Source of the DNA: an uncultured Bacteroidales bacterium
GTDB taxonomy: Bacteria > Bacteroidota > Bacteroidia > Bacteroidales > JAGOPY01
Length of the DNA stretch: 64,000 nt
Assembly: GCA_964489545.1 (NCBI GenBank)
Contig: CAZAZE010000009.1
Location: forward strand, 3,035-67,034
Direction: 5' to 3'
The position numbers and the translations under genes were made by a program. Under the pieces are notes generated by a model. That model saw nothing but the letters and a program-made list of their open reading frames with translations, was not told the origin of the DNA and did no database searches. Below are positions 1 to 14,200 of the stretch, in pieces (the stretch's first letter is position 1; the number at the start of each line of letters is the position of its first letter).

Positions 1-3000
1 TATTAACTGTTCGATCATTATTTTTAAGTTGATCCTTGTAAGACTTTTCTAAATTAGCAATCTTATTCATTTTGGATTTCGGAATCCGGATATATTTTTT
101 AGATAAGCCCTTCAATAAGTCTGTCACTTCAAGCTTAATAACGTCTTCTTTATCAGGATTAATATCTCTTTCCGAAATCTCAGTAAAATTATCCAATTCC
201 CTTACATAATCGATGATCTTATGCTTCAATACCGGAATTTCATCATCTGTAACCGTATCGATGTTTTTACCGAGAATTGCCTGACAAAGAGAATTTATCC
301 AGACTTTCTTATTATCCAATAAAGAAACTAAGCGTTTGAAGAAGACATTGTACTTTGGTTGAATCCGGTCTGTCTTAAGTTTTGCGAATCTGTGGCTGAA
401 GGCAGCTTTATTTTTCGGAAATACCAAATCCTCCCCAAAAATTTCAGTATTGATGTAAGTTTCAATATCTTCAATTAAAACATCTAAGGCACCATTTATC
501 TCCTGTACACACTCCTTGATTGAAATGGCAAAGTCCTCAATAGCTTCCTGTTTCTCAAGCAATTCAACAGTGTTGAAACCCAATGCATTAGGGAATTCCT
601 CGAAAAAGGTAATTTCAGGGTCAACAGCATTTGCAATGGCTTGCCTTAAGTTTATGGATTTTTCGGAAAGATTCTTTGTATTTATTGCATAAGCTGAGAG
701 GGATTTGTAAAAAATCACAAAAGGTTTAAAGGTTTCAATAAAGGATGCATTTGTAAATCTTTCCTGTTCAATCTGATTTAAGATTTCCCTGTATTTATTA
801 AACAACTCAAGCCTGGCCGGTGTCAGGTCAAACTTCTTAATATAGAAATCTTGCGGAATCTTATTAATCAAATCAAGAATCTCATCATTGAGATTGGGTA
901 AGAATGTTATTTGATTGTCTGGCCTTCCTCTTTGATAAAGAGCAAAGTCATTTTTATTGGCAATTAAAAAAACGGGGAGCCAAAAATCGACGAATCCCTG
1001 CTTTAGTTTATAAGGTCTTCGTTTCAAAAAATCAGAAAATTCCAAGAGTGATTTCCTCTCATCGCGGCAACTTTCCAGAAATTCCAGACTACCTAACCAT
1101 AATCGTTGAAAGGAGGGGGAAGAAGGGGCTGATAATTGCCATTTGCCGTCCCTGAAATTCCACATACCAGAGCCCTTAATTAATGATAGAAAAATTGATT
1201 TTTCGGGAGGAAACTTCTGATCATCAAAATTCAAGTTCTCCATCGGGGTTTCTTCCAACAAACCGGATATCAGATTTCTCCGTGCAATTGAAATAGATCC
1301 CGAAATTTTAGTCTTGTTTACAAGCTCATTCCTAAATACAGGGGTAGCGGAATAAACCTCGTAACAAATAAAGGTTAATAAATTATTGAATCCCTTCTGT
1401 TTAGCCACAGGTATTAAGTTTCCCTGAAAAAACCACTTAACAGTTTGATCATCTGAATACAATCCATCCAGAACATAGTGGTTTAGCAGATTCCTGTAGT
1501 GTGATTTAATATTTTCAAGCTCTTGGAGGGCAATTATGTCATCGGCATTATCCTCAATAACGCGTTTTATCTTTTCCAGTTCAAAGATCGTATCTTCTAT
1601 CTTGCTTGTATTAGTGAATAACCCATATAAAACAGCATCTTCCACATGTGAAGAATGCTCTTTAATTGTATTCTCGGTAATCTTATCATTAAATATCAAA
1701 TTAATATAACCGTCCAATTCATCTTCCGGCACTTCCTTAACTGGCTCATTACTAATTTTAAAGCTAAACATCCTTGGCGTTCCCGTCAAAAATGAAGCTG
1801 CTTTGGCCATTATTACGGGAAAATCAAAATAGTTATTCAGGTAAAAACTTGAGTCTTTTACACGTTCAATAAGATTACCGGCCTCATTGATTGCCAGTTC
1901 AAAATCAAGATCGGTTCCATGAAAAAGCTTATATCGGTTATCATACTGCGAATGCCTGACTATTTTGAATTTAACCAATTGATTTATAATCTCTTTAGGG
2001 TTATTAATTCCTAAAGAATATTTTCCATAGAGATTAATAAATTCATCGTCAATCGTCCCTCCCTTATTTGAAAAAATGTTAAGCAAGCCAATGGTTTTAA
2101 TCAATTTTCCAGCATCCATTGCCAGCTTTGGCATTCGCACTTCTATCCTGTCTAAAGCTGATCGTATTGAATTCCATTGGTTTAAATAAGGATTGTATTT
2201 GGTAGAAATGATAGAAAAATGATAATAGTTTAAATAATCATAAACACATGCAATATTGAAGAATGGGTTACTTTCTTTATTAAATCCATATAATCCAAAT
2301 TCTTCCTCAGTTTCAATGAAGGAGAAGAGTGACCTCTCATTTTGTCCATACTCTTGTAAAGCGAGGGTTAAGATTGAAGCTGATAATAAATCTAAGGGAT
2401 AGATTCGATTACTAAAATCAAGGGAATCAAATTCCTTCAAAGGATACAATTTTGCTTCACTGATGCTAGAATGAACTTTTTCCAGCTCTACAATTTCATT
2501 TATTACAAATCCATACTCCGCAATCTTCTCAGCAGCTAAAAATAATAGCTGCTCAACCGGTTCATTAAAATTTAATTCAACAAACCTTCCTTTAACCTTA
2601 TTCCATTCATCAATCTGGTTTTGTGTAAGTTCCAAGGAGTATGCGTTGAAATTTTTATGAAGGACCGTGATAAAAATTACCTCATGATTTTTTGAATTAA
2701 CGAACTCGGCCAATTGTTGGAGAAAGTACAATTCTTTCTCCGGATTATTCTTTGCAGCAAATTCAAGGAATTTGCCAAATTCATCAATTACAATAACTAA
2801 TCCTTTGTTTTTTAAATCCTTAAGATAATTTTTTAAACCTTCCAGTACTTTTCCTGTATCATTTGATTTCGAATCAAGCCTTAACAACTCACTGAAAGCC
2901 TGGATTATTGATTTATGCTCGCCGATAAGGTTAATAAACTGAAATTCATCAACATCCCTAAAAAGCCGAGCCCGCTTAAAGATATGGTTAGTTCCATTAA

Positions 3001-3199
3001 GCGATTGTTCTAATGCAACAATAAAACTTGATTTTCCTGATCCATAAGAACCAATAACAGAAAATGACCTACTACCCTTTTGATAGTTAGAAACTATTTG
3101 ATTATAAATGTTTTGGGCATTTGGAGTAGAGATATAATTTATCTCCTCATCAAAATCCCTTATTATATTAACCGAAGGAGTATAGGTTTTAATTTTCAT
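1..3199 (-). CDS. Large P-loop NTPase; N-terminus complete, C-terminus runs off the left window edge (>=1066 codons); SspC-like ATPase partner of the DUF4007 gene
   Basis: Absent from the supplied ORF track because it has no stop inside the window. My translation of the minus strand from the ATG at 3199 (MKIKTYTPSVNIIRDFDEE...) has no in-frame stop down to position 2. Walker A GSYGSGKS (aa 50-57, nt 3029-3052), Walker B LVIVIDE (aa 134-140), then a GQNERSLFSF motif. The ATG overlaps the stop of the upstream gene by 11 nt. Confidence 0.8.
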   Translation of the reverse strand, partial: MKIKTYTPSVNIIRDFDEEINYISTPNAQNIYNQIVSNYQKGSRSFSVIGSYGSGKSSFIVALEQSLNGTNHIFKRARLFRDVDEFQFINLIGEHKSIIQAFSELLRLDSKSNDTGKVLEGLKNYLKDLKNKGLVIVIDEFGKFLEFAAKNNPEKELYFLQQLAEFVNSKNHEVIFITVLHKNFNAYSLELTQNQIDEWNKVKGRFVELNFNEPVEQLLFLAAEKIAEYGFVINEIVELEKVHSSISEAKLYPLKEFDSLDFSNRIYPLDLLSASILTLALQEYGQNERSLFSFIETEEEFGLYGFNKESNPFFNIACVYDYLNYYHFSIISTKYNPYLNQWNSIRSALDRIEVRMPKLAMDAGKLIKTIGLLNIFSNKGGTIDDEFINLYGKYSLGINNPKEIINQLVKFKIVRHSQYDNRYKLFHGTDLDFELAINEAGNLIERVKDSSFYLNNYFDFPVIMAKAASFLTGTPRMFSFKISNEPVKEVPEDELDGYINLIFNDKITENTIKEHSSHVEDAVLYGLFTNTSKIEDTIFELEKIKRVIEDNADDIIALQELENIKSHYRNLLNHYVLDGLYSDDQTVKWFFQGNLIPVAKQKGFNNLLTFICYEVYSATPVFRNELVNKTKISGSISIARRNLISGLLEETPMENLNFDDQKFPPEKSIFLSLIKGSGMWNFRDGKWQLSAPSSPSFQRLWLGSLEFLESCRDERKSLLEFSDFLKRRPYKLKQGFVDFWLPVFLIANKNDFALYQRGRPDNQITFLPNLNDEILDLINKIPQDFYIKKFDLTPARLELFNKYREILNQIEQERFTNASFIETFKPFVIFYKSLSAYAINTKNLSEKSINLRQAIANAVDPEITFFEEFPNALGFNTVELLEKQEAIEDFAISIKECVQEINGALDVLIEDIETYINTEIFGEDLVFPKNKAAFSHRFAKLKTDRIQPKYNVFFKRLVSLLDNKKVWINSLCQAILGKNIDTVTDDEIPVLKHKIIDYVRELDNFTEISERDINPDKEDVIKLEVTDLLKGLSKKYIRIPKSKMNKIANLEKSYKDQLKNNDRTVN

Positions 3200-4073
3200 A
3201 ATAATTCCTGATCAACTGTAATGTGTCGGGAGCTTTATCGATATGCAATAAATAATTACCTGCAGTTTGAGAAAAAGTTACCTGAGGATATTTCGCAGCG
3301 ATTATTTCAATCTTTTCATAAATATCATCCTTACTTAAAAGAAACACGTTTCCAATCGAATTGTTATCCGAAAAAAGTTCATTCAAAGTAATATTGGCTT
3401 CCGTTCCATATTTATTAACGACCGCCCATAACAAGATCAAAGGTGGTAAAGAAGGTCGCTTCTTTTTTGACATAAGATAATATTCTTCTTTGGTAAGTTC
3501 ATCATCTGTCTTTACAACTCTTTCAATCAATTGCAGATCAATAAAAAGCGAAGCAAATTCTTCTTCAATATTGGCTTTTGCAGAAGCCCTGTTCGATGCC
3601 AGGTAACTTCTTAAAAAAACACTTACATCCGGCTCGAATGTTTTTTCCGAGTAAGAGTTAGGATTAAGGTTACCGGTGATCCTTTTCAAAAAACCAACGA
3701 GATGATTCTTGGTGAACTCATTCCTTTCTTTCAGAAACTGGTTAAAAAGCAGATTATACATTGACGCATAATTCTGTGTAACAAGCAAATAGTGCAAAAG
3801 CCAGCTAGTTCCAATATCCTCTAAATAAGGATCATAACCGCGATCTTCAAAAATCATCTTGGCCAATTCGGTCAAGTTGTCATTTTCATCAACTAATCCA
3901 AATGCCTTAAGCCAAAACCGGATTGAGGATACCATATTCTTGCCTACACCCAATTTAACAACGGCATCCTCATCATTGAAACTATTACCTCCTAGAAGAA
4001 ATTCAACACCTTTCTTTGGCCAAAATTGCTTACAGGTAAAGGTTTCGTGACCGGAAAATTTATATGATGTCAT
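3189..4073 (-). CDS. DUF4007-family protein (SspB-like)
   Basis: N-terminus MTSYKFSGHETFTCKQFWPKKG matches my recollection of the DUF4007 signature (F-x-GHE-x-F...W-x-KK). About 294 aa from the ATG at 4073; the track start at 4115 adds 14 unlikely residues. Confidence 0.75.
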   Translation of the reverse strand: MTSYKFSGHETFTCKQFWPKKGVEFLLGGNSFNDEDAVVKLGVGKNMVSSIRFWLKAFGLVDENDNLTELAKMIFEDRGYDPYLEDIGTSWLLHYLLVTQNYASMYNLLFNQFLKERNEFTKNHLVGFLKRITGNLNPNSYSEKTFEPDVSVFLRSYLASNRASAKANIEEEFASLFIDLQLIERVVKTDDELTKEEYYLMSKKKRPSLPPLILLWAVVNKYGTEANITLNELFSDNNSIGNVFLLSKDDIYEKIEIIAAKYPQVTFSQTAGNYLLHIDKAPDTLQLIRNYYEN

Positions 4074-4257
4074 TGAAGTTCTTAATGTATGCCACAATGG
4101 ATGTAAAATTATCAATAATCAGATGCTGATGATTCACATATTGGCAAGAGTTACCATGTTTTTTTTAACGGGTTTACTATAGATTCTTCATTTCCATGTC
4201 TGCCAGCTCACTTAGGGGATTTAGGGATTAAGTATTGGATTAAAATTGTAAAGATTA

Positions 4258-5157
4258 TTACACCACCTTTAAAAACCGCTCATACCGCCAATCCAGCCGC
4301 TCCCTATCCGGATAATCTCGTTTAGAGGATGGCAAAAGGATCTTTCGATTATTCAGTTCCTGGATGCCGTGCTTTAACATTGGGCCATCGATCTCATGAA
4401 GTATATCTTCGCGAATGTGGATGGTATAGTCAGGTGAAATGCCGATGATATTCACATCATAAGCTTTATGATGGATCTTACACAGAGTTAATCCATTTGG
4501 GACGATGGGATGTCCCAAAGGTTCAGTGTCTGGAATAATATGGGCCGCATCTAAAAGCTCTGAATGATTGAGCTTGCATAAACAGCATTGAGAATGATAC
4601 GCTGCCAAGACCCTGATTCGAAACGATTGCTGATGAGCTCTTTGCTCAACCAAGGTGGTAAAATATTTTCTTCGATAGTATTCAAGGGACGCATTCATTG
4701 GATCCGTTTCAATGGAGCCTCCAAGATATTTCTGATCATCCAGGGCTACAGTAAATTCCAGGGCGGTTTGATTGTCATGCAATATATAAGCTGGGAAGTT
4801 GGCTAAATAGTTCCCGGGAGAAATACTCATAAAATATATAAGAGGAGTCTGGCTTTTCCAGGCCATCCTTAGACCTACATTGTTGGGGTGATTGGGATCA
4901 GTTCCCCGATATTTGTAAGATAGAAAGCCATCTTCTGAAATAACATCATTATAAGGTCCTTTATATACCGTCGTTATGGATATGGGCATGAGCTCGAATT
5001 GCCTGGGCTTCCAAATGCCAGCAGGCCCAATTAAAGTAATCCTTTCGCCCTGGAAATCAAACCCGGCTTCGAGAACTATTCGAGATATGACTTCCCCATT
5101 TAGTTCAACCTGTCTTTTCAGCCAGTTAAAAGCCGCGAGTCTTATTTGCTCTTCCAT
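4258..5157 (-). CDS. HNH endonuclease (HNH_2/PF13391-like C-terminus) with an N-terminal putative modified-DNA reader domain; type IV restriction-like
   Basis: C-terminal motif CCLCKLNHSELLDAAHIIPDTEPLGHPIVPNGLTLCKIHHKAYD. The N-terminal ~190 aa carry GIWKP...YKYRGTDPNHPNNVGLRMAWKSQTPLIYF. Start set to the internal Met (MEEQIRLAAF, ATG at 5157) because the longer track ORF overlaps the opposite-strand gene and crosses the composition boundary. Confidence 0.7.
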   Translation of the reverse strand: MEEQIRLAAFNWLKRQVELNGEVISRIVLEAGFDFQGERITLIGPAGIWKPRQFELMPISITTVYKGPYNDVISEDGFLSYKYRGTDPNHPNNVGLRMAWKSQTPLIYFMSISPGNYLANFPAYILHDNQTALEFTVALDDQKYLGGSIETDPMNASLEYYRRKYFTTLVEQRAHQQSFRIRVLAAYHSQCCLCKLNHSELLDAAHIIPDTEPLGHPIVPNGLTLCKIHHKAYDVNIIGISPDYTIHIREDILHEIDGPMLKHGIQELNNRKILLPSSKRDYPDRERLDWRYERFLKVV

Positions 5158-5259
5158 TTTATTATCAATTGAGCGCCGTGCCAAGTCATTTTCAAAGTTA
5201 GCAAAGAATGAATGTGGTTCGTCATATGCTTTATTGAATATACCCCTATTTTTGTGATC

Positions 5260-5826
5260 ATGACCCACGAAATCTACCAACTCCACATCACACTGCTCGG
5301 TTCCAGGCCGAAGATCTGGCGCCGGCTTCGGGTACCGGCTGATATGAAACTGGCCAAAGTGCATAAAACCCTCCAGATCGCCTTTGGATGGACGGATTCG
5401 CACCTGCATCAATTCATTAAGGATGAAAAATTCTATACGGTGCGCTACCCTGATGATGACTTCTGGGATGATCTGAGACATGTGGATTACAAGGGAGCCA
5501 AAACCCGCATCTCCGATCTGCTGCAGTCGGAAAAGGAAGCTGTCGTGTATGAATACGACTTCGGCGATGGGTGGAGGCATGAGATCGTCCTGGAAAAGAT
5601 CCTGCCGCCGAACCCGGAACAAGCCCTGCCGCTGTGCCTCGACGGACGCCGCGCCGGCCCGCCGGAAGACTGCGGCGGAGTTTTTGGCTATGCCGAACTG
5701 CTCCGCATCCTGAAAAATCCGCGGCATAAAGAGTATGAAAGCTACCTCGAGTGGGTGGGAGGAAGGTTCGACCCGGAAGCGTTCGATATCGAAAAGGTCA
5801 ACGCCCGCCTCGCGCGGATGAGGTGA
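5260..5826 (+). CDS. Plasmid pRiA4b ORF-3-like (MM3350-like, PF07929-type) protein
   Basis: IYQLHITLLGSRPKIWRRLRVPADMKLAKVHKTLQIAFGWTDSHLHQF...YEYDFGDGWRHEIVLEKI...CLDGRRAGPPEDCGG is the typical signature of this family. ATG at 5260. Confidence 0.8.
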   Translation: MTHEIYQLHITLLGSRPKIWRRLRVPADMKLAKVHKTLQIAFGWTDSHLHQFIKDEKFYTVRYPDDDFWDDLRHVDYKGAKTRISDLLQSEKEAVVYEYDFGDGWRHEIVLEKILPPNPEQALPLCLDGRRAGPPEDCGGVFGYAELLRILKNPRHKEYESYLEWVGGRFDPEAFDIEKVNARLARMR

Positions 5827-5905
5827 TGCCTCCGCTCCTCCGTATTATTTTTAACCGCAGAGACGCAGAGACCGTTTGCCGTTTGCCTTTGCCCACCTTT
5901 ATTTC

Positions 5906-5978
5906 GCCACCAAAGCACCAATGCACAAAAGAGCACCAAAGGCTTTAGTGAATTTTGGTGTTTTCGTGTTTTTGTGGC
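5906..5978. repeat. GCCAC...GTGGC composite imperfect hairpin element (copy A)
   Basis: gccaccaaagcaccaatgcacaaaagagcaccaaagg / ctttagtgaattttggtgttttcgtgtttttgtggc. The arms are built from 8-10-nt sub-repeats. Confidence 0.7.
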
Positions 5979-6160
5979 TGAAATTCGCCGCAGAGACCGA
6001 TAGCCGTGTGCCGTTTCCAATGTCATCTTGCCTGATTCTTCTGCGGTTCACCAACACAAAAAAAAGAAAACCCCGCCGAAATTTTGATCATCGGATTTTT
6101 CTAACTTGCGCTGCCCCGCGAAACCCGCGGCATTTCCTGATCCTTAACAAACCAAAAACT

Positions 6161-8044
6161 ATGAAAACATTGAGCATGATGCTGTTGGCGCTCGCCCTCG
6201 CGCCGGTACTTTTAATCACCGCCCAGGACGCGCAGTTCGTCAAACAAACCTTTTTCGCCGATAAGAATATCGTGTTCTCGGGAATGACCCGGGGCGCCGA
6301 TGGCGGTATCCTGGTCTGCACCTCCAAGGAAAGCTTCCCGGACGACTTCAGTGGCGTAGCCATCCGCCGCCTGGCGATCAACGGCGACGTGAAAGACAAA
6401 ACGGACCTGAGACTGGATATGGTGCATAACTTCGCCCTCACGCCCGATGGCGGCTTTATCGTGCTGTTCAACTACGATATGTTCAGCGACGCGAAAGGCG
6501 TCAGGCTCGACTTCAGCAACAGCAGCGAATACTATATGGCCGAACGGGATTATGAAAACATGCCGGGGGTGGTCAAAGTGTCGAAGTACGGCAGCCTGGA
6601 ATGGGTGCTGGAACTGAAACCGGCCCAGTACTTCAGCGACGGCGACGAAAGCGCCCTCTTCGTGCTGCCGGATAACCGCTGCTGGATCGTGTTCAACTAC
6701 TCCGCCGAAGATACCACCAGCGAATTCGGCGCCCAGGACGACTTTACGCGCGCCCTGATGATCGCCGCCAACGGGACGGTCCTCTTCGAGAAAGACTTCA
6801 TCGACAACGACCACGGCGTGCTGCGTGCCCCGGTGCTGCTGGAAGACGGCCGCCTGCTGCTGTTCTCCGACACCCGGCACGCCGGCGGCGGACAGGCGCT
6901 CATGACCCTCGACACGCAGGGCAACCTTGTGCAAATGGCCGCCATCCCCGGCCTGGAAGGGGTGTTCCCGAACGATATCGTCGCCGCGGGGAACTTTGGC
7001 TTCGCATTCACCCATCACGAGAACCAGGTGAATTATGTGACGCTGATCGACCGCGCCGGGAAGACCGCCTGGAAACTCCCGGCCACCGGGAACATCCACG
7101 CGATGACCGCGGACGAAAGCGCCCTCTATGCCGTCTCCACCGAAAAAAGCCTGTATGGTGTCGCCGAAGGGACGCCGGTACGCTATACCATCACCCGCTA
7201 TGACTACAGCGGCGCCGTGACCCCGGTGATGACCCTCACCGCCGACGGGCCGGTGGATCCGAAGAAATTGATCCGGACGGAATACAGCTTCGTGATGGCC
7301 GGCAACATCAAGCAGCCAGGCGCGCAAGGGGTGGCTGTCCTGGTCACCGTGCCGGAGACCAACGCCGACATCTTCCGCAATATGAACGCCTACGACTACC
7401 GGGAATATGCCAAAGCGGTCGAAAACAACGACCTGGAACGGATCCGGGCATTGGCCGCCTTCGGGATCGACCCGGACTTCAAAGCGGGCAGTGCCGGCGA
7501 CCGCGAAACGGAAGCCGACAACCCGCTGCTCGTGGCCTTCAAGCTGGGTAAGTACGACCTCGCAGAAGAGCTGCTGAAAAGCGGCGCCGACCCCGACGCA
7601 GTCGACAAAGTTCCGGTGCGCTACTTCATCTACGAACGGGCGGAGATCTACAACCTCCCGGTCACCCCGCTGATGTACATCGCCCTGACGCCCGGCTTTT
7701 ACGACGCACCCAAATATGTAGAGCTGCTGAACAAGTACAACGCCGATTTCAAGCGCATCACGCGCGACGGAACGGCATTCCGTCAGGCGTTCCAGATGCA
7801 GAACACGGAATTCATGGACCTCTACAGCCAGTACGTTACCTTCAGCACCGACGACCTGAATAACTTATTCGCCCCGGCGTACGAGTTCAACCTCCCTCAA
7901 TCCCTGAAATGGATCCTGGACCGCGGCGCCAACGCCAACAGCACCGATTTCATGGGCGACAGCTACCTGGAAAAGGGCATGCAGTCGGACAGCAAAGAGA
8001 TCAAGGCGGTGCTGAAAGAGTGGCAGAAAACGCACAAACATTAG
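6161..8044 (+). CDS. Secreted protein with C-terminal ankyrin-like repeats
   Basis: Signal peptide MKTLSMMLLALALAPVLLITAQD at the ATG at 6161. C-terminal repeats such as NPLLVAFKLGKYDLAEELLKSGADPDAV. The upstream part of the track ORF (from 5876) is translated repeat DNA. Confidence 0.7.
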   Translation: MKTLSMMLLALALAPVLLITAQDAQFVKQTFFADKNIVFSGMTRGADGGILVCTSKESFPDDFSGVAIRRLAINGDVKDKTDLRLDMVHNFALTPDGGFIVLFNYDMFSDAKGVRLDFSNSSEYYMAERDYENMPGVVKVSKYGSLEWVLELKPAQYFSDGDESALFVLPDNRCWIVFNYSAEDTTSEFGAQDDFTRALMIAANGTVLFEKDFIDNDHGVLRAPVLLEDGRLLLFSDTRHAGGGQALMTLDTQGNLVQMAAIPGLEGVFPNDIVAAGNFGFAFTHHENQVNYVTLIDRAGKTAWKLPATGNIHAMTADESALYAVSTEKSLYGVAEGTPVRYTITRYDYSGAVTPVMTLTADGPVDPKKLIRTEYSFVMAGNIKQPGAQGVAVLVTVPETNADIFRNMNAYDYREYAKAVENNDLERIRALAAFGIDPDFKAGSAGDRETEADNPLLVAFKLGKYDLAEELLKSGADPDAVDKVPVRYFIYERAEIYNLPVTPLMYIALTPGFYDAPKYVELLNKYNADFKRITRDGTAFRQAFQMQNTEFMDLYSQYVTFSTDDLNNLFAPAYEFNLPQSLKWILDRGANANSTDFMGDSYLEKGMQSDSKEIKAVLKEWQKTHKH

Positions 8045-8051
8045 AAATTTT

Positions 8052-8075
8052 GAGGTTTAAGGTTTAAGGTTTAAG
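8052..8075. repeat. Heptamer tandem array AGGTTTA x 3
   Basis: gaggtttaaggtttaaggtttaag. The same unit recurs at 31531-31555 and, degenerate, at 26630-26650. Confidence 0.7.
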
Positions 8076-8086
8076 TTGGGGCGGCA

Positions 8087-8153
8087 CCAGTTTCCAGTTC
8101 GCAGTTCCCAGTTCCCAGTTTGCCCGAACCTGGAACTCTGGAACCCTGGAACC
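8087..8153. repeat. Hairpin made of opposed heptamer arrays (CCCAGTT x ~4 versus CTGGAAC x ~3)
   Basis: ccagtttccagttcgcagttcccagttcccagttt gcccg aacctggaactctggaaccctggaacc, directly downstream of the stop at 8044. Confidence 0.65.
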
Positions 8154-8160
8154 AACAATA

Positions 8161-8233
8161 GCCACTAAAGCACAAAAGCACAAAAGGGCACTAAAGGCTT
8201 TGGTGCATTTTAGTGTTTTCGTGTTTTTGTGGC
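8161..8233. repeat. GCCAC...GTGGC composite hairpin element (copy B), direct-repeat partner of copy A
   Basis: gccactaaagcacaaaagcacaaaagggcactaaagg / ctttggtgcattttagtgttttcgtgtttttgtggc. It shares an identical 20-mer, ttttcgtgtttttgtggctg, with copy A. Confidence 0.75.
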
Positions 8234-8287
8234 TGGAATTCACCGCCGAGGCGCAGAGTCGCAGAGCCTGTTAGCCGTTTCCATTTT

Positions 8288-8463
8288 CTTACAGTCCTAC
8301 AGTCCTGCTGTCTTACAGTCTTACAGTCCTACAGTCTTACAGTCCTAAAGTCTTACAGTCTTACCGTCCTACAGTCTTACAGTCTTACCGTCTTACCGTC
8401 TTACTGTCTTACCGTCTTACCGTCCCCGCTCCCCCGCTTCCCCGCTCCCCCGCTTCCCCGCAT
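8288..8463. repeat. Octamer tandem array, about 22 units (CTTACAGT-type grading into CCCCGCTY-type)
   Basis: Read directly. The period of 8 nt is maintained over about 176 nt upstream of the NuoE-like gene. Confidence 0.85.
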
Positions 8464-8549
8464 CTTTAGACTCCCTCCAAATTAGCGCCGGGCCGCTGGG
8501 AAACGGGAAGAAATTTTATTTTTACCACGCCAAAAAACACGGCAATCCT

Positions 8550-9077
8550 ATGCGCATTGAACGATTCATCCCCGCGGTGGGAGCTGAGGCGCAGGAAGAA
8601 ATCGACCTTTCCCTTCTCGACCGCCTCATCGAAAAATACAAGCACAAAAAAGGCAACCTCATCCCGCTGCTGCAGGGCACGCAGAATATCTACGGATTCC
8701 TGCCGCGCGTGGCTTTTGAGAAGATCGCCGCCGAGACGGGCCTCAGCCTGTCGGACATGTATGGCGTGGCCACCTTCTACGCCCAGTTCCGCCTGAAACC
8801 GGTGGGCAAACACATCATCAAAGTATGCCACGGTACGGCCTGCCACGTGCAGAACGCCAACACCATCACCGACTCGCTCCAGGAGTCGCTGAAGATCAAG
8901 GACGGCGAAACGACCGAAGACAGCCTGTTCACGCTCGAGTCGGTGGCCTGCCTGGGCTGCTGCTCCCTGGCGCCGGTGATGATGATCGGCGAGCAGACCT
9001 ACGGCAAACTCACCGGCAGCGAAGCGGTCCGGATCGTGAAGAATATCCGGATGGAAGAAGTGAAACAGAATAACTAA
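8550..9077 (+). CDS. NuoE/HoxE/HydC-like thioredoxin-fold [2Fe-2S] subunit
   Basis: KVCHGTACHV...CLGCCSLAPVMMI cysteine pattern and overall NuoE-like sequence. Confidence 0.85.
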   Translation: MRIERFIPAVGAEAQEEIDLSLLDRLIEKYKHKKGNLIPLLQGTQNIYGFLPRVAFEKIAAETGLSLSDMYGVATFYAQFRLKPVGKHIIKVCHGTACHVQNANTITDSLQESLKIKDGETTEDSLFTLESVACLGCCSLAPVMMIGEQTYGKLTGSEAVRIVKNIRMEEVKQNN

Positions 9078-9119
9078 TGTTTACAACCTCTTCCATTGAA
9101 TGTGGAGATATGAAAAGTT

Positions 9120-9229
9120 TTAACCGCAAAGGCGCACAAAGGACAACACGAAGGCACACAAAGGTCGCCATCGCGCTTATCAACCCTTAGTGCGCCTTAG
9201 TGAAGTACTTCGTGCGCCTTAGTGGTTAA
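9120..9229. repeat. TTAACCGC...GTGGTTAA composite hairpin element between the NuoE-like and NuoF-like genes
   Basis: Left arm of CACAAAGG-type sub-repeats, right arm of CCTTAGTG-type sub-repeats. Confidence 0.7.
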
Positions 9230-9263
9230 ATAAAGATGATAAATATCTCCGGATTTTTGGAGG

Positions 9264-11060
9264 ATGGAAATAAAATATGCAATGCAAAAAACAAAAGTAA
9301 TCGTCGGGCTGGGCAGCTGCGGGGTCGCGGCGGGCGCCGGCAAGGTGTACGATAAAATCAGGGCCATCCGGGAGGTGGAGCACCTCGATTTCGAGCTGAA
9401 GAAGACCTCCTGCGTCGGCATGTGCTACCGCGAGCCGCTGGTGGAGATCATCGACGAAACCGGCTCCTACCTCTACGGCGAGATCACCGAAGACCGGGCG
9501 GTGGAGCTCATCGAGAAGCACGTCAATTTGCACGACCCGGTGCGCGACTACCTCATCCAGAGCGACCTGTTCGAGACGCCGGACCGCACCTTCCTCGAGG
9601 CGCAGGTGAAGATCGTGCTGCGCAACTGCGGCTACATCGACCCGGAGCACATCGAAGAGTACGAGGCGCGCAAAGGCTACGAAGCCATACGCAGGATCGC
9701 CTCGGAGCGGATCGCCCGCACTGAGGTCATCCAGACGGTACTGAATTCCGGCATCCGCGGACGCGGCGGCGGCGGCTTCCCCACCGGCCTGAAGTGGAAG
9801 TTCGCCAACGACAACAAGTCGGACGAAAAGTACATCATCTGCAACGCCGACGAAGGCGACCCGGGCGCGTTCATGGACCGCTCGGTGCTGGAAGGCGACC
9901 CGCACTCGGTCATCGAAGGGATGATCATCGCCGCCTACGCCATCGAGGCCACCGGCGGGGTGATCTACTGCCGCGCCGAGTACCCGCTGGCCATCAAGCG
10001 CCTCAACATCGCGCTCGACCAGGCCCGGGCCAAGGGATACCTGGGGCAAGCGATCCTCGGCATTCCGGACTTCAACTTCGACATCTACATCAAGGAAGGC
10101 GCCGGCGCTTTCGTCTGCGGCGAGGAAACGGCCCTCATCGCCTCGGTGGAAGGCGAGCGCGGCATGCCCCGCAAACGCCCGCCCTTCCCGGCCGCCAGCG
10201 GCCTGTGGCGCAAGCCCACCAACATCAACAACGTGGAAACCTTCGCCAACATCCCCTGGATCATCCTCAACGGCGCGGCCGAATACGCCAAATACGGCAC
10301 CGAGAAGAGCAAGGGCACCAAGGTGTTCGCCCTGGCCGGCAAGATCAAGCGCTCGGGCCTGGTGGAGGTGCCCATGGGCATCACCATCCGCGACATCATC
10401 TTCAAGCTCGGCGGCGGCATCCAGAAAGACCGCAAGTTCAAGGCCGTGCAGATGGGCGGCCCCTCGGGCGGCTGCATCCCGGAATACATGGCCGACACCA
10501 TCGTCGACTACGACAGCGTGAACGCCACCGGCGCCATCATGGGCTCCGGCGGGATGGTCGTCATGGACGAAGACACCTGCATGGTCGACGTGGCCAAGTT
10601 CTTCCTCGACTTCACCCAGAAGGAGAGCTGCGGCAAATGCACCTTCTGCCGCGTGGGCACCAAGCGCATGCTGGAGATCCTGCAGCGCATCACCGAAGGC
10701 AGGGGCGAGGACGGCGACATCGAGCGCCTCGAGGAGCTGGCCTACCAGATCAAGGACAACTCCCTGTGCGGACTGGGCCAGACGGCGCCCAACCCGGTGC
10801 TGACCACCATCCGCTACTTCCGCCACGAGTACGAGGCGCACATCCGCGACAAGAAATGCCCGGCCAAGGCATGCAAGCAACTGCTCACCTACGAGGTCAT
10901 CGCGGAAAACTGCACCGGCTGCACCGTCTGCGCCAAGAACTGCCCGGTCGACGCCATCACCGGCAACCGCAAGGAGGTGCATTTCATCCTGCAGGACGTC
11001 TGCATCAAGTGCGGCATGTGTTACACGAAATGTAAATTCGAAGCGATAAAACTATCATGA
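9264..11060 (+). CDS. NuoF/HydB-like NADH-binding FMN/[4Fe-4S] subunit with an N-terminal 2Fe-2S-like domain and a C-terminal 2x[4Fe-4S] ferredoxin domain
   Basis: GRGGGGFPTGLKWKF (FMN), ICNADEGDPGAFMDR (NADH), ESCGKCTFCRVG, and C-terminal CTGCTVCAKNCP / CIKCGMCYTKC. Confidence 0.9.
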   Translation: MEIKYAMQKTKVIVGLGSCGVAAGAGKVYDKIRAIREVEHLDFELKKTSCVGMCYREPLVEIIDETGSYLYGEITEDRAVELIEKHVNLHDPVRDYLIQSDLFETPDRTFLEAQVKIVLRNCGYIDPEHIEEYEARKGYEAIRRIASERIARTEVIQTVLNSGIRGRGGGGFPTGLKWKFANDNKSDEKYIICNADEGDPGAFMDRSVLEGDPHSVIEGMIIAAYAIEATGGVIYCRAEYPLAIKRLNIALDQARAKGYLGQAILGIPDFNFDIYIKEGAGAFVCGEETALIASVEGERGMPRKRPPFPAASGLWRKPTNINNVETFANIPWIILNGAAEYAKYGTEKSKGTKVFALAGKIKRSGLVEVPMGITIRDIIFKLGGGIQKDRKFKAVQMGGPSGGCIPEYMADTIVDYDSVNATGAIMGSGGMVVMDEDTCMVDVAKFFLDFTQKESCGKCTFCRVGTKRMLEILQRITEGRGEDGDIERLEELAYQIKDNSLCGLGQTAPNPVLTTIRYFRHEYEAHIRDKKCPAKACKQLLTYEVIAENCTGCTVCAKNCPVDAITGNRKEVHFILQDVCIKCGMCYTKCKFEAIKLS

Positions 11061-11078
11061 CCCTTTTCTTTATATTAT

Positions 11079-11173
11079 TTAACCACAAAGGCGCACAAAG
11101 GATTTCACAAAGGCGCACAAAGGAGGATCTTCGCAGTACCACCTTCGTGTTCCTTCGTGTTCTTTCGTGGTAA
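11079..11173. repeat. TTAACCAC...GTGGTAA composite hairpin element between the NuoF-like and fusion genes
   Basis: Four CACAAAGG units face three CCTTCGTG/CTTTCGTG units. Confidence 0.7.
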
Positions 11174-11208
11174 AAAAGAATTAAAGCAAAGCACCAAAAA
11201 GGATAAAT

Positions 11209-14200
11209 ATGAGCGAAAAAGTAAATATAATCTTAAACGGCAGCATCGTCGGCGGCATCAAAGGAGAAACCATCCTGGAACTGGCCAGGCGCCATGGGAT
11301 CGAGATCCCGACCCTGTGCAACGATCCGCGGCTGGAGCCCTATACCTCCTGCTACGTCTGCGTGGTCGAGGTCGAAGGCATGCGCGGGCTGCAGCCTTCC
11401 TGCTCCACGAAGATCTCCGAGGGGATGCGCATCGAGACCGACAACGGCAAGATCCGCCAGGCGCGCAAGACCGCGCTCGACCTGCTGGTGAGCAACCATT
11501 ACGCCGATTGTATCGGGCCCTGCAAGCAGACCTGCCCGGCAGGCGTGGATGTGCAGGGCTACATCAGCCTGATCGAGAAAGGGCAGTACCACGAGGCCGT
11601 CGGGCTCATCAAGGAGACCAACCCGCTGCCGGCCATCTGCGGCCGCGTGTGCGTGCGCCCCTGCGAGGTGGCCTGCCGCCGCAACCTGCTCGACGAAGGC
11701 GCCCCCGTGGGCATCGACTACCTGAAGCGCTTCGCTTCCGACATCGACCTCGAATCGCCCGGCAAATGGAAACCCGTCATCAAGCCTTCCACCGGCAAAA
11801 AGGTCGCCGTGATCGGCGCCGGGCCCGCCGGGCTGTCGTGCGGCTTCTTCCTCCAGAAGGAAGGACACCAGGTCGATATCTTCGAGGCCAGCCCGAAAGC
11901 GGGCGGATGGCTGCGCTATGGCATCCCCGAATACCGGCTTCCGAATGACTTACTTCAGAAAGAAGTTGATAATATAACCGAGATGGGTGTGCGGATTTTC
12001 TTCAATCAGAAGTTCGGGAAAGACATCAGTTATAAGGATATTCAACAGAATTACGACGCCATGATCCTGGGCATCGGGTCGCAGAAAGGCACCCTGATCG
12101 GTTGCGACGGAGAGGATGCGGAAGGCGTTTTTTCCGGAATTGATTTCCTTAAGAACATGGAAATCACCGGAGAACGTTTTGATTTCCGCGGAAAAAAGGT
12201 CGCCGTGATCGGCGGCGGGAACACCGCCATGGACTGCTGCAGGACTTCCATCCGCTGCGGCGCCGACAAAGTGTATGTCATTTACCGCCGTACCGAAAAA
12301 GAAATGCCGGCCAATCCGATCGAGATACATGAGTCGAAACTGGAAGGAGTAGATTACATGTTTCTGACCCTTCCGGTCAAGGTAGTGAAGAGTGAACGGG
12401 GAGCGGTGAAGAGTATTATTTGCCAGAAGATGGCTCTGGGCGAACCGGATGCATCCGGGCGGAGAAGGCCCGTTCCGGTGGAAGGATCGGAATTTGAGGT
12501 GGAAGTCGATTTCATCCTGGCCGCCATCGGGCAGAAGACCGTGCCGGATTTCCTGGAGGATATCAAAGCCAGTGCCGACAACGGGGAGGTGAAAGCCAAC
12601 CGCTGGGGCGACCTCGAAGCCGATCCGGATACGTTGCAGACCGGCATCCCGTCGGTGTTCGCCGCCGGCGACGGCGTGACCGGACCGGCCACGCTCATAC
12701 AGGCCATCGCCCAGGGAAGGAAAGCTGCTCATAGCTGCGACCTCTACCTGAAAGGATTGCCGGTGGTGCCGGAACAGGCCGAATTCTTCAGCAAAAAAGA
12801 CAATTTCAAACCCCAGGTCATGGCCGACTACAAAGGCTATTTCCCGGAGCAGAAGCGCGAGGAGATGCCGACCCTCGACCCGGAGAAGCGGATGAACTTC
12901 GACGAGGTGGAGCTGGGCTACGCCTCTGAGGCCGTGGCCTTCCACGAGACGCAGCGCTGCCTGGAATGCGGCTGCACGGCCCTGTTCACCTGCGACCTGA
13001 AGAAATACTGCACCGAATACGAAGCCGACCAGAAGAAGCTGGCCGGGGAATTTAAAGAGTACCACATCGATTTCCGCCATCCCTACATCGAGATCGACAA
13101 CAACAAATGCATCCTGTGCAGCCGTTGCGTCCGCATCTGCCGCGAGGTCGTGGGCGCCAACGCCCTGGGCCTGGTGAACCGAGGGTTCGAGACCTACGTC
13201 GCGCCCAGCATGGGCAACGCCCTGCAGGACACCTATTGCGAGTCGTGCGGGCTGTGCATCACCACCTGTCCTACGGGCGCCATCACCGAGAACGTGCCGT
13301 TCAAACCCGGCCCCGTCCGGCTGGAGCCGGCAGAGACCATCTGCAACTACTGCTCGGTGGGCTGCGCCATCTCCCTCAACCACAAAAACGGCTTCGTGAT
13401 GCAGGTCACCGGCGCAGAAGGCCATGTGAACCCCGACGGCAACCTTTGCCGCTATGCCAAGTTCGGATACCATTACCTGAACGACCGGCGGCGGATCACC
13501 GCGCCCATGATGAAGGTCAACGGGAAGTTCGAAACGGTTTCCTGGGAGAAGGCATATGATGTGATCGCGCAGAAAATATCGGCCGTAAGTCCCGATGAGA
13601 ACGCCTTCTTTGCCGGCGCACGGCTCACGAACGAGGAGCAGTACCTGGTGCAAAAGCTGGCCAGGGCCGGGGCGAAGACCAACAACGTGACCAGCTTCCA
13701 TTACATGGCCCGGGGCGCCGGATACCGCGGAGACGCGATTGCCGCCACGCCCTTCAGCCAGGTCAAAGACGCCGGGAAGATCTACCTGGTCGGGTCGGAG
13801 ATCAACAGCGACAATGCGGTTTTAGGATTTAGGATTTACAATGTACAATTTGCAAAGGGGATACCGGTTTCGCTGGTAACGGACAAAACGGACAGTTCCA
13901 TGGCGCACAAGGTCGATGAGTTGATGGTGATCAAATCGTACTACCATTTCATCAAGGCCGTGAACCACTACCTGGCCTCTGCCGGGCTGCACAACGGGCT
14001 GTTCATCAAGGACAATTGCACCGGGTATGAGGAATACAAGGCCGCGCTGCTGCAGGAAAGTTTCGCGGAGCTGGTCAAACTTGCCGGTGTTTCGGAGCTG
14101 GACGTGATCGATTTCGCGAAGCGCTACAACGAAGAGCAGAACGCCATCATCGTGTTTTCGGAGAAAGAGCTTTCGTCGAACGCCTGCACCGAGCTGTTCA

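Follow-up and report, generated by a model that had tools for sequence, protein, structure and literature searches.

A putative type IV restriction endonuclease with an SRA-like reader and an HNH_2 nuclease domain beside sspB and sspC in a Bacteroidales genome

The gene at positions 4258-5157 (minus strand) of a 64,000-nucleotide stretch of DNA from an uncultured Bacteroidales bacterium (assembly GCA_964489545.1, contig CAZAZE010000009.1, positions 3,035 to 67,034; this whole stretch is called the window below) encodes an HNH nuclease homolog, designated P0001, and stands next to ssp genes for phosphorothioate (PT) modification of DNA. The locus raises the question of whether P0001 is the restriction arm of the PT system or an independent type IV, i.e., modification-dependent, enzyme, and what its N-terminal domain reads on DNA. 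Both options were named in a first-pass annotation of the sequence. From the analyses described here, we consider it probable (roughly 70%) that P0001 is an autonomous, nucleoside triphosphate-independent type IV restriction endonuclease of the SRA-HNH kind, reading modified cytosine.

The P0001 gene and its nuclease half

The gene and the parts of its product were assigned as follows.

4258-5157, minus strand: SRA-like plus HNH_2 nuclease gene (protein P0001, 299 amino acids), from the translation, full-length homologs and the AlphaFold2 model
4738-5157, minus strand: predicted N-terminal SRA-like reader domain, residues 1-140, from the AlphaFold2 model and Foldseek
5005-5019, minus strand: G47-I-W-K-P51 motif, aligned with GVHRP, which forms the base of the thumb loop in SRA domains
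4915-4953, minus strand: putative pocket residues Y69 (4951-4953), D71 (4945-4947) and Y81 (4915-4917), from conservation and spacing
4597-4737, minus strand: flexible linker at residues 141-152, then a long helix at residues 153-187 that connects to the nuclease core, from the per-residue confidence of the AlphaFold2 model
4258-4596, minus strand: HNH_2 (beta-beta-alpha-Me) nuclease core, residues 188-299, from Pfam PF13391
4540-4542, minus strand: predicted general base H206, invariant in 58 sequences
4495-4497, minus strand: N221, invariant in 58 sequences
4468-4470, minus strand: H230, predicted metal ligand together with D234, both invariant in 58 sequences

The reading frame starts with ATG at 5157 and stops with TAA at 4258-4260. 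A homolog search returned more than 7,500 clusters (90% identity) at E ≤ 1e-3 among 8,000 candidates scored, and the best homolog showed 95% identity in a full-length alignment; therefore, this is not a chance open reading frame (ORF). Nearly all of the relatives are 293-305 amino acids long and aligned over the full length. An exact-sequence lookup of P0001 itself gave no record. In an alignment of 58 close relatives (55-95% identity), which was used for all of the residue counts given as invariant, the family consensus 'ME.QIRLAAF' starts exactly at the P0001 Met. Both motifs quoted in the first-pass annotation were found in the translation, GIWKP...YKYRGTDPNHPNNVGLRMAWKSQTPLIYF at residues 47-109 and AAHIIP...NGLTLCKIHHKAYD at residues 204-234.

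A mechanical ORF list contains a longer minus-strand frame of 489 amino acids (4258-5727). This candidate was rejected, because the plus strand at 5212-5826 codes for a PRiA4_ORF3 (MM3350-like) protein (E = 1.2e-65) and the consensus Met lies downstream; the N-terminal 190 codons of the long frame are a shadow. The PRiA4_ORF3 gene diverges from the HNH gene, with only 54 bp between the two. A promoter and terminator scan was uninformative, and the sigma-70 consensus is probably inapplicable to Bacteroidota.

The HNH_2-type C-terminus proposed in the first-pass annotation was confirmed by the profile search and by residue conservation. Pfam PF13391 (HNH_2), the sole Pfam match of the protein, covers residues 191-240 with 30.3-31.8 bits against a cutoff of 21. 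A Cys3His zinc site (C191/C194/C226/H229) is invariant, and so are D203, H206, N221, H230 and D234. Substitution of the catalytic His and Asn residues, a possibility raised in the same annotation, was seen in none of the 58 sequences. When the family profile was compared with solved structures, only TagI was retrieved, weakly (E = 0.49) and over the HNH region alone. In this profile alignment, 'DAAHIIP' falls on 'QGAHIRP', and 'NGLSLCKIHHAAFD' (NGLxLCxxHHxxFD) falls on 'NMLCLCPNDHVRFD', the TagI motif which includes Asp258, a ligand of the catalytic metal (PMC6212794). Judged by its residues and profile match, the C-terminal half is an intact HNH_2 nuclease domain.

Fold and putative pocket of the N-terminal domain

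The AlphaFold2 model of full-length P0001 had a mean predicted local distance difference test (pLDDT) score of 85.5, and its top match in the PDB by Foldseek was the SRA-HNH enzyme TagI (6ghs, E = 3e-7), followed by the SUVH5 SRA domains, the EVE-HNH enzyme VcaM4I and ScoMcrA. When the N-terminal domain was modelled alone (residues 1-150; pLDDT 90, predicted TM-score 0.85), the Foldseek matches with E < 0.1 were exclusively SRA domains (SUVH5, SUVH4, SUVH6, SUVH9 and ScoMcrA). The match to SUVH5 had E-values of 2e-4 to 7e-4 and a probability of 1.0, with about 20% identity across some 135 columns. In the full-length model, residues 141-152 form a linker of low confidence, with pLDDT below 50 at 147-152, and the profile matches on P0001 start at residue 155 (PADLOC HNH) and 171 (NCBIfam). 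The long helix of residues 153-187 belongs with the nuclease half. The reader of about 190 amino acids that had been suggested earlier was upheld as to its SRA-like fold, by Foldseek and by the pocket pattern described below, and had to be corrected as to its extent, because the domain ends near residue 140 and a length of 190 includes the linker helix. A non-DNA-binding fold, which would have spoken against a reader, was not what the model gave; the modelled fold is the DNA-base-flipping, SRA-like one.

Sequence profiles gave a different picture from structure prediction: the SRA, EVE, sulfur-binding domain (SBD) and DUF3427 searches suggested in the first-pass annotation matched nothing on the N-terminal domain. 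Neither EVE, DUF3427 nor other Pfam reader families matched in 59 diverse family members at E ≤ 10, residues 1-150 are uncovered by Pfam, NCBIfam or PADLOC models, and a search of solved structures with the single P0001 sequence gave no match.

None of the 58 sequences deviates at Y69, D71 or Y81, and conservation of the three residues is still at least 90% in a wider set reaching 31-54% identity. It is known that the flipped 5-methylcytosine (5mC) or 5-hydroxymethylcytosine (5hmC) is sandwiched in SUVH5 by Tyr416 and Tyr428 and that Asp418 forms hydrogen bonds with it (PMC4740795). The spacing of P0001, Y69-x-D71-x9-Y81, is identical to that of Y416/D418/Y428. The pocket walls of TagI are Tyr55 and Tyr67 (PMC6212794), and the Tyr-Tyr distance is 12 residues in both proteins. 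A weak hhalign alignment of the family profile with the UHRF1 SRA domain (E = 0.05-0.22), for which the query sequence and the numbering were checked against PDB chains, sets Y69 and Y81 on UHRF1 Y466 and Y478. Its register was consistent over a 42-column core, and a forced longer alignment was uninformative beyond this core. The same alignment, which is not significant, pairs GIWKP with UHRF1 G440-V-H-R-P444; G47, I48, K50 and P51 are invariant in the family, and a thumb-loop role is suggested for this motif. On the strength of the model, we take the N-terminal domain to be a divergent SRA-type domain, and the triad suggests that it retains a flipped-cytosine pocket.

We propose that the SRA-like beta-barrel would bind DNA and flip 5mC, 5hmC or a similar modified cytosine into this pocket, with Y69 and Y81 as the walls and D71 reading the Watson-Crick edge. 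The flexible linker and the long helix would tether the zinc-stabilised HNH_2 domain. As in TagI, this domain would probably act as a dimer, and it would cleave the DNA away from the modified base, with H206 as the general base and a divalent metal bound by H230 and D234. Such an enzyme would guard the cell from phages and plasmids bearing modified cytosines.

The ssp neighbourhood, the family and the alternative explanations

The earlier supposition that the neighbouring genes write phosphorothioate was well founded, as two ssp genes were identified downstream of the HNH gene; they share its strand and are separated from it by 142-183 nucleotides.

3189-4115, minus strand: sspB (DUF4007), with Pfam DUF4007 at 6.9e-74 and PADLOC SspB at 1.5e-96
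2-3199, minus strand: sspC, overlapping the end of sspB and running off the window, with PADLOC SspC at E = 0 and 1222 bits over profile positions 1-1036 of 1039

A contig of a different sample (L093) is collinear with window positions 1-8072 at 93.4% DNA identity, and its positions 8114-13766 represent the region beyond the left edge of the window. There the sspBCD operon continues with sspD (PADLOC 5.5e-90), and then come a 369-amino-acid DUF262/GmrSD_N protein (PADLOC NsnA-like, 2.4e-29) without the DUF1524 nuclease half of SspE, a Ser/Thr kinase (Stk2/PD-T4-6-like) whose gene overlaps the DUF262 gene, and, on the opposite strand, an 825-amino-acid HATPase_c_3 protein. No SspE, SspFGH or sspA was found at this sister locus. 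The genes from sspB through the kinase overlap or abut, and the HNH gene is set apart from them. The DUF262 protein and the kinase may form a variant Ssp effector module.

An abrupt GC boundary delimits an island at window positions 1-5260, and the HNH gene lies at its right edge. The GC content is 42.9% for the HNH gene, 34-36% for sspB, sspC and sspD, with 34-35% for those in the window, 29-30% for the DUF262 and kinase genes and 38.5% for the HATPase gene, as compared with 54-62% for the adjacent host genes, about 53-58% for the host and 52-64% for everything to the right of the island. Because the island genes of the sister contig span 29% to 43% GC, the island is regarded as a mosaic of separately acquired pieces. 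A motif scan detected no C5- or N-methyltransferase motifs in the long ORFs of the window, in keeping with a published rule by which PUA/SRA-HNH genes and methyltransferases are not neighbours (PMC6765204).

The family of P0001 is large. It was found in at least 557 species genomes of many phyla, and its N-terminal domain alone counts 1,304 representatives at the 50% level. Among the 42 representatives of the domain with at least 260 amino acids, 30 carry an HNH domain. Of the remaining 12, most are broken by frameshifts, truncation or insertion sequence (IS) elements, and one has a variant HNH-like tail. Hence the domain appears to occur essentially only with an HNH-type C-terminal domain. 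Full-length copies are present on plasmids and none was found in phage records, and the cultured hosts include strains of Allochromatium, Methylibium, Azospirillum, Actinomyces and Bradyrhizobium.

Linkage to ssp genes was examined at 91 homolog loci, excluding the sister contig, from 80 species genomes, metagenome contigs and plasmids. The 80 genomes belong to Bacteroidota, Bacillota, Chloroflexota, Spirochaetota, Desulfobacterota, Gemmatimonadota, Pseudomonadota and other phyla; 51 of the 91 loci extended for 5 kb or more on either side of the gene, and all flanks together came to 1.3 Mb. Relatives of SspB, SspC, the DUF262 protein or the kinase were found at none of the 91 loci, and the single match of the scan was a generic PAPS-reductase domain (L033). 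Across 85 loci, no conserved neighbour family was detected; the partners are sporadic, and the recurrent neighbour clusters are generic families, McrC (4 loci) or other HNH_2 paralogs (about 11 loci). Even the relatives at 75-80% identity have differing neighbours, namely a RelA_SpoT-domain protein upstream (L001), an HNH-HIT fusion (L095/L096), and ORF6N with an IS110 transposase (L097). Further homologs lie in defence islands, one with EVE-McrB/McrC and a second HNH_2 protein, and another with Mrr, Abi_2, an SNF2 helicase and a DUF1156 methylase-like protein. On plasmid pALVIN01 of Allochromatium vinosum DSM 180 (homolog WP_012972335), the context is type I hsdRMS. No PT genes were found within 20 kb of the homolog on an Azospirillum plasmid. 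A metagenome scan with SspB yielded 3 loci only, a small sample, and the HNH gene is missing from the two closest fetched SspB loci (53% identity), where a BsoBI-type restriction-modification (R-M) system or an unrelated gene lies upstream.

These results indicate that the family is autonomous and that the Ssp linkage is lineage-specific, seen only with the 93%-identical sister contig. The adjacency at this locus is best explained by defence-island clustering; the HNH gene lies beside sspBCD because defence genes cluster, and not because of phosphorothioate reading. The option of a restriction arm of the PT system, raised in the first-pass annotation, was accordingly not borne out.

Several points weigh against our reading of P0001. 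The TM-score of the N-terminal domain to SUVH5 is just 0.44-0.50, with a root-mean-square deviation of more than 7 Å; SAD_SRA (PF02182) matches none of the 59 family members, even at E ≤ 10; and the hhalign alignment with UHRF1 is, at E = 0.05-0.22, insignificant. The proposed pocket is drawn from residue spacing and conservation. The sequence similarity to TagI is marginal and confined to the HNH domain (E = 0.49), and literature searches gave nothing tied to this family, only characterised SRA-HNH, EVE-HNH and SBD-HNH enzymes. As for the neighbourhood, the ssp cluster of this lineage, as seen in the sister contig, lacks a canonical SspE or SspFGH. Furthermore, on the conjugative megaplasmid RPME01 of Methylibium petroleiphilum PM1, a 40%-identical HNH homolog lies 23-28 kb from a full Ssp cluster (L091, 145322-167784; also L090:6974-7900). 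That cluster encodes DUF4007, a 1110-amino-acid SspC-like protein, a PAPS reductase, a DUF262 SspE-like protein, an 1807-amino-acid FtsK/SpoIIIE protein, two hypothetical proteins and a 'PT-associated methyltransferase', and it is separated from the HNH homolog by an IS element, partition genes and a recombinase.

In one alternative, P0001 would serve this Ssp system as its restriction arm or as an accessory nuclease; host DNA would be marked by SspBCD, and the HNH enzyme would cut unmarked DNA, either directly or licensed by the DUF262 sensor and the kinase. We regard this as unlikely. The position immediately upstream of sspB-sspC on the same strand, its retention in the sister contig at 93.4% DNA identity, and the 'missing' nuclease of that contig, where in place of SspE or SspFGH only the nuclease-less 369-amino-acid DUF262 protein and the kinase were found, would all agree with such a role. 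The shared Methylibium plasmid points in the same direction, and published surveys record SRA+HNH nucleases with an extra winged helix-turn-helix (wHTH) or SBD beside dnd genes (PMC10853773). On the other hand, Ssp genes occur at 0 of the 91 other homolog loci, the relatives at 75-80% identity have unrelated neighbours, and the two closest SspB loci have no HNH gene. A gap of at least 142 nucleotides precedes sspB, whereas the sspB-to-kinase genes overlap or abut, the GC content of the HNH gene is unlike that of the ssp genes, and P0001 has neither an SBD nor a PADLOC SspE/F/G/H match. The Methylibium cluster has its own DUF262 SspE-like and FtsK-like genes, more than 23 kb from the homolog. 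It is decidedly improbable, in our estimation, that an SRA-like HNH enzyme was co-opted as the cutting arm where ssp had lost or never had a nuclease-bearing SspE, and is licensed or restrained by the PT status, which would make a new three-part PT-sensing restriction module.

A PT-dependent type IV enzyme of the EcoWI/ScoMcrA kind, with an N-terminal domain binding the PT sulfur, is suggested by the name of the top NCBIfam match, NF045808 PT-DNA_restrict ('phosphorothioated DNA-binding restriction endonuclease'), by the presence of ScoMcrA among the structural matches and by the adjoining PT writers. The NF045808 match, however, reaches only 65.5 bits against a cutoff of 180 and is confined to the HNH half (profile positions 157-281). 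ScoMcrA has a winged-helix SBD (PMC10853773), and no such domain is present in the full-length or N-domain models of P0001. The ScoMcrA matches are explained by its SRA and HNH parts, and the SUVH5 SRA alone scores better. The PADLOC models of SspE, SspF, SspG and SspH do not match P0001, which is hit by generic 'HNH' models only, and a PT-dependent nuclease beside a PT writer would presumably attack the DNA of its own host. As the N-domain model retrieves SRA domains, the SBD or PT-reader identity was rejected, including the SBD alternative of the first-pass annotation, and PT-dependent cleavage is very improbable. A small but appreciable chance is left to an SRA-like domain of other specificity, such as N4-methylcytosine, 6-methyladenine (6mA), a hypermodified pyrimidine, an abasic or mismatched site or a short sequence, in which case the protein would be an HNH nuclease of a type II-like, nicking or repair kind. 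No SRA sequence profile recognises so divergent a domain, its TM-scores are modest, specificity cannot be read from sequence, and the PUA-superfamily HNH enzymes include the 6mA-stimulated nickase ScoA3V and others that are not modification dependent in vitro (PMC6765204). Against this stand the invariant Tyr/Asp/Tyr triad, spaced as in the cytosine pocket of SUVH5, the structural neighbours, which are all 5mC/5hmC readers, and the defence-island contexts, which hold other type IV enzymes, McrBC and Mrr.

Related enzymes and side observations

As an SRA-HNH enzyme, P0001 would work like TagI of Thermocrispum agreste (6ghs), ScoA3IV/Sco5333 and TbiR51I, and it is of the SRA/PUA-HNH kind, but by sequence it is outside their family. 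Like P0001, these proteins have about 300 amino acids, an N-terminal SRA-type reader, a flexible linker and a C-terminal zinc HNH domain. The catalytic pattern AHI...N.L.LC...H...D aligns between TagI and P0001, and TagI-type enzymes and P0001 are alike in being encoded by stand-alone genes without a methyltransferase. The SRA domain of TagI is recognisable by sequence (the UHRF1 SRA finds TagI at 2e-20), whereas the N-terminal domain of P0001 is recognised by no SRA profile, and the 5mC/5hmC activity of TagI is demonstrated, while that of P0001 is predicted. The SUVH5 SRA domain of Arabidopsis (3q0b/3q0c/3q0d/3q0f/4ygi) is the best structural match of the N-terminal domain and has the same pocket spacing. 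SUVH5 is, however, a chromatin reader from a eukaryote with a fused SET methyltransferase, while P0001 is a nuclease homolog in which the SUVH5 thumb-loop residues (Gln392 etc.) have no demonstrated equivalents.

ScoMcrA (SBD-SRA-HNH) and the dnd-linked wHTH+SAD+HNH nucleases share the SRA and HNH modules with P0001 and are a precedent for SRA+HNH enzymes beside PT-modification genes (PMC10853773). The ScoMcrA type has an N-terminal sulfur-binding winged helix and more than 500 amino acids, as compared with about 300 and no winged helix in P0001; the wHTH+SAD+HNH nucleases adjoin dnd, whereas P0001 adjoins ssp, and this only in its own lineage. EcoWI and SprMcrA (SBD-HNH; NF045808) are similar in length and have a related HNH half (profile positions 157-281), but their N-terminal SBD is unmatched in P0001, the N-terminal fold of which is SRA-like in the model. 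VcaM4I and TspA15I (EVE-HNH; 6yex) likewise combine a PUA-superfamily reader with HNH and gave a weaker full-length structural match (E about 2e-3); the VcaM4I reader is an EVE domain, and the N-terminal domain of P0001 alone retrieves no EVE structures.

We suggest that the gene be annotated as a putative type IV (SRA-like/HNH) restriction endonuclease, and not as a phosphorothioate reader or an Ssp component. The architecture and mechanism of SRA-HNH enzymes are already established, and no concept is changed by this assignment. The analysis does flag a very large and phylogenetically broad family with a reader domain covered by no Pfam model. One characterised member would annotate thousands of genes, and might give a new modified-cytosine-dependent enzyme for epigenomic mapping.

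Some further observations were made in the course of the analysis. An ankyrin-repeat protein (722 amino acids, with the repeats near the C-terminus) is encoded just outside the island, at 5876-8044 on the plus strand, and is kept in the sister contig. In front of the closest SspB relative with upstream sequence (53% identity; L087:2206-4908) are genes for a BsoBI-type restriction endonuclease, for a methyltransferase and for a controller-like helix-turn-helix (HTH) protein, another case of ssp genes embedded among unrelated R-M genes.

At about 11 of the 85 loci, the enzyme adjoins one or two other HNH_2 proteins, usually encoded just upstream on the same strand. These have differing N-terminal domains, likewise without a Pfam match, and such neighbours look like nuclease arrays with swapped reader domains. 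The adjoining HNH_2 genes are at the following positions.

L002:7084-7857: adjoining HNH_2 gene
L011:10958-11920: adjoining HNH_2 gene
L020:662-1666: adjoining HNH_2 gene
L030:8987-9967: adjoining HNH_2 gene
L040:672-2570: adjoining HNH_2 gene
L061:8833-9768: adjoining HNH_2 gene
L078:9455-10387: adjoining HNH_2 gene
L083:8887-9762: adjoining HNH_2 gene
L083:12630-13559: adjoining HNH_2 gene

Directly downstream of the family member in a Neomarinimicrobiota locus (L033:11197-14517), four co-oriented genes encode a ParB_N-HTH protein, an HTH_ParB protein, a weakly AlwI-like endonuclease and the PAPS-reductase-domain protein; we presume that this set resembles IbrAB or BrxP-type modules. A fusion of HNH (HNH_5) and HIT recurs by family members (L095:1381-2361, L096:1450-2361 and L014:9025-9999), including the locus of an 80%-identical homolog.

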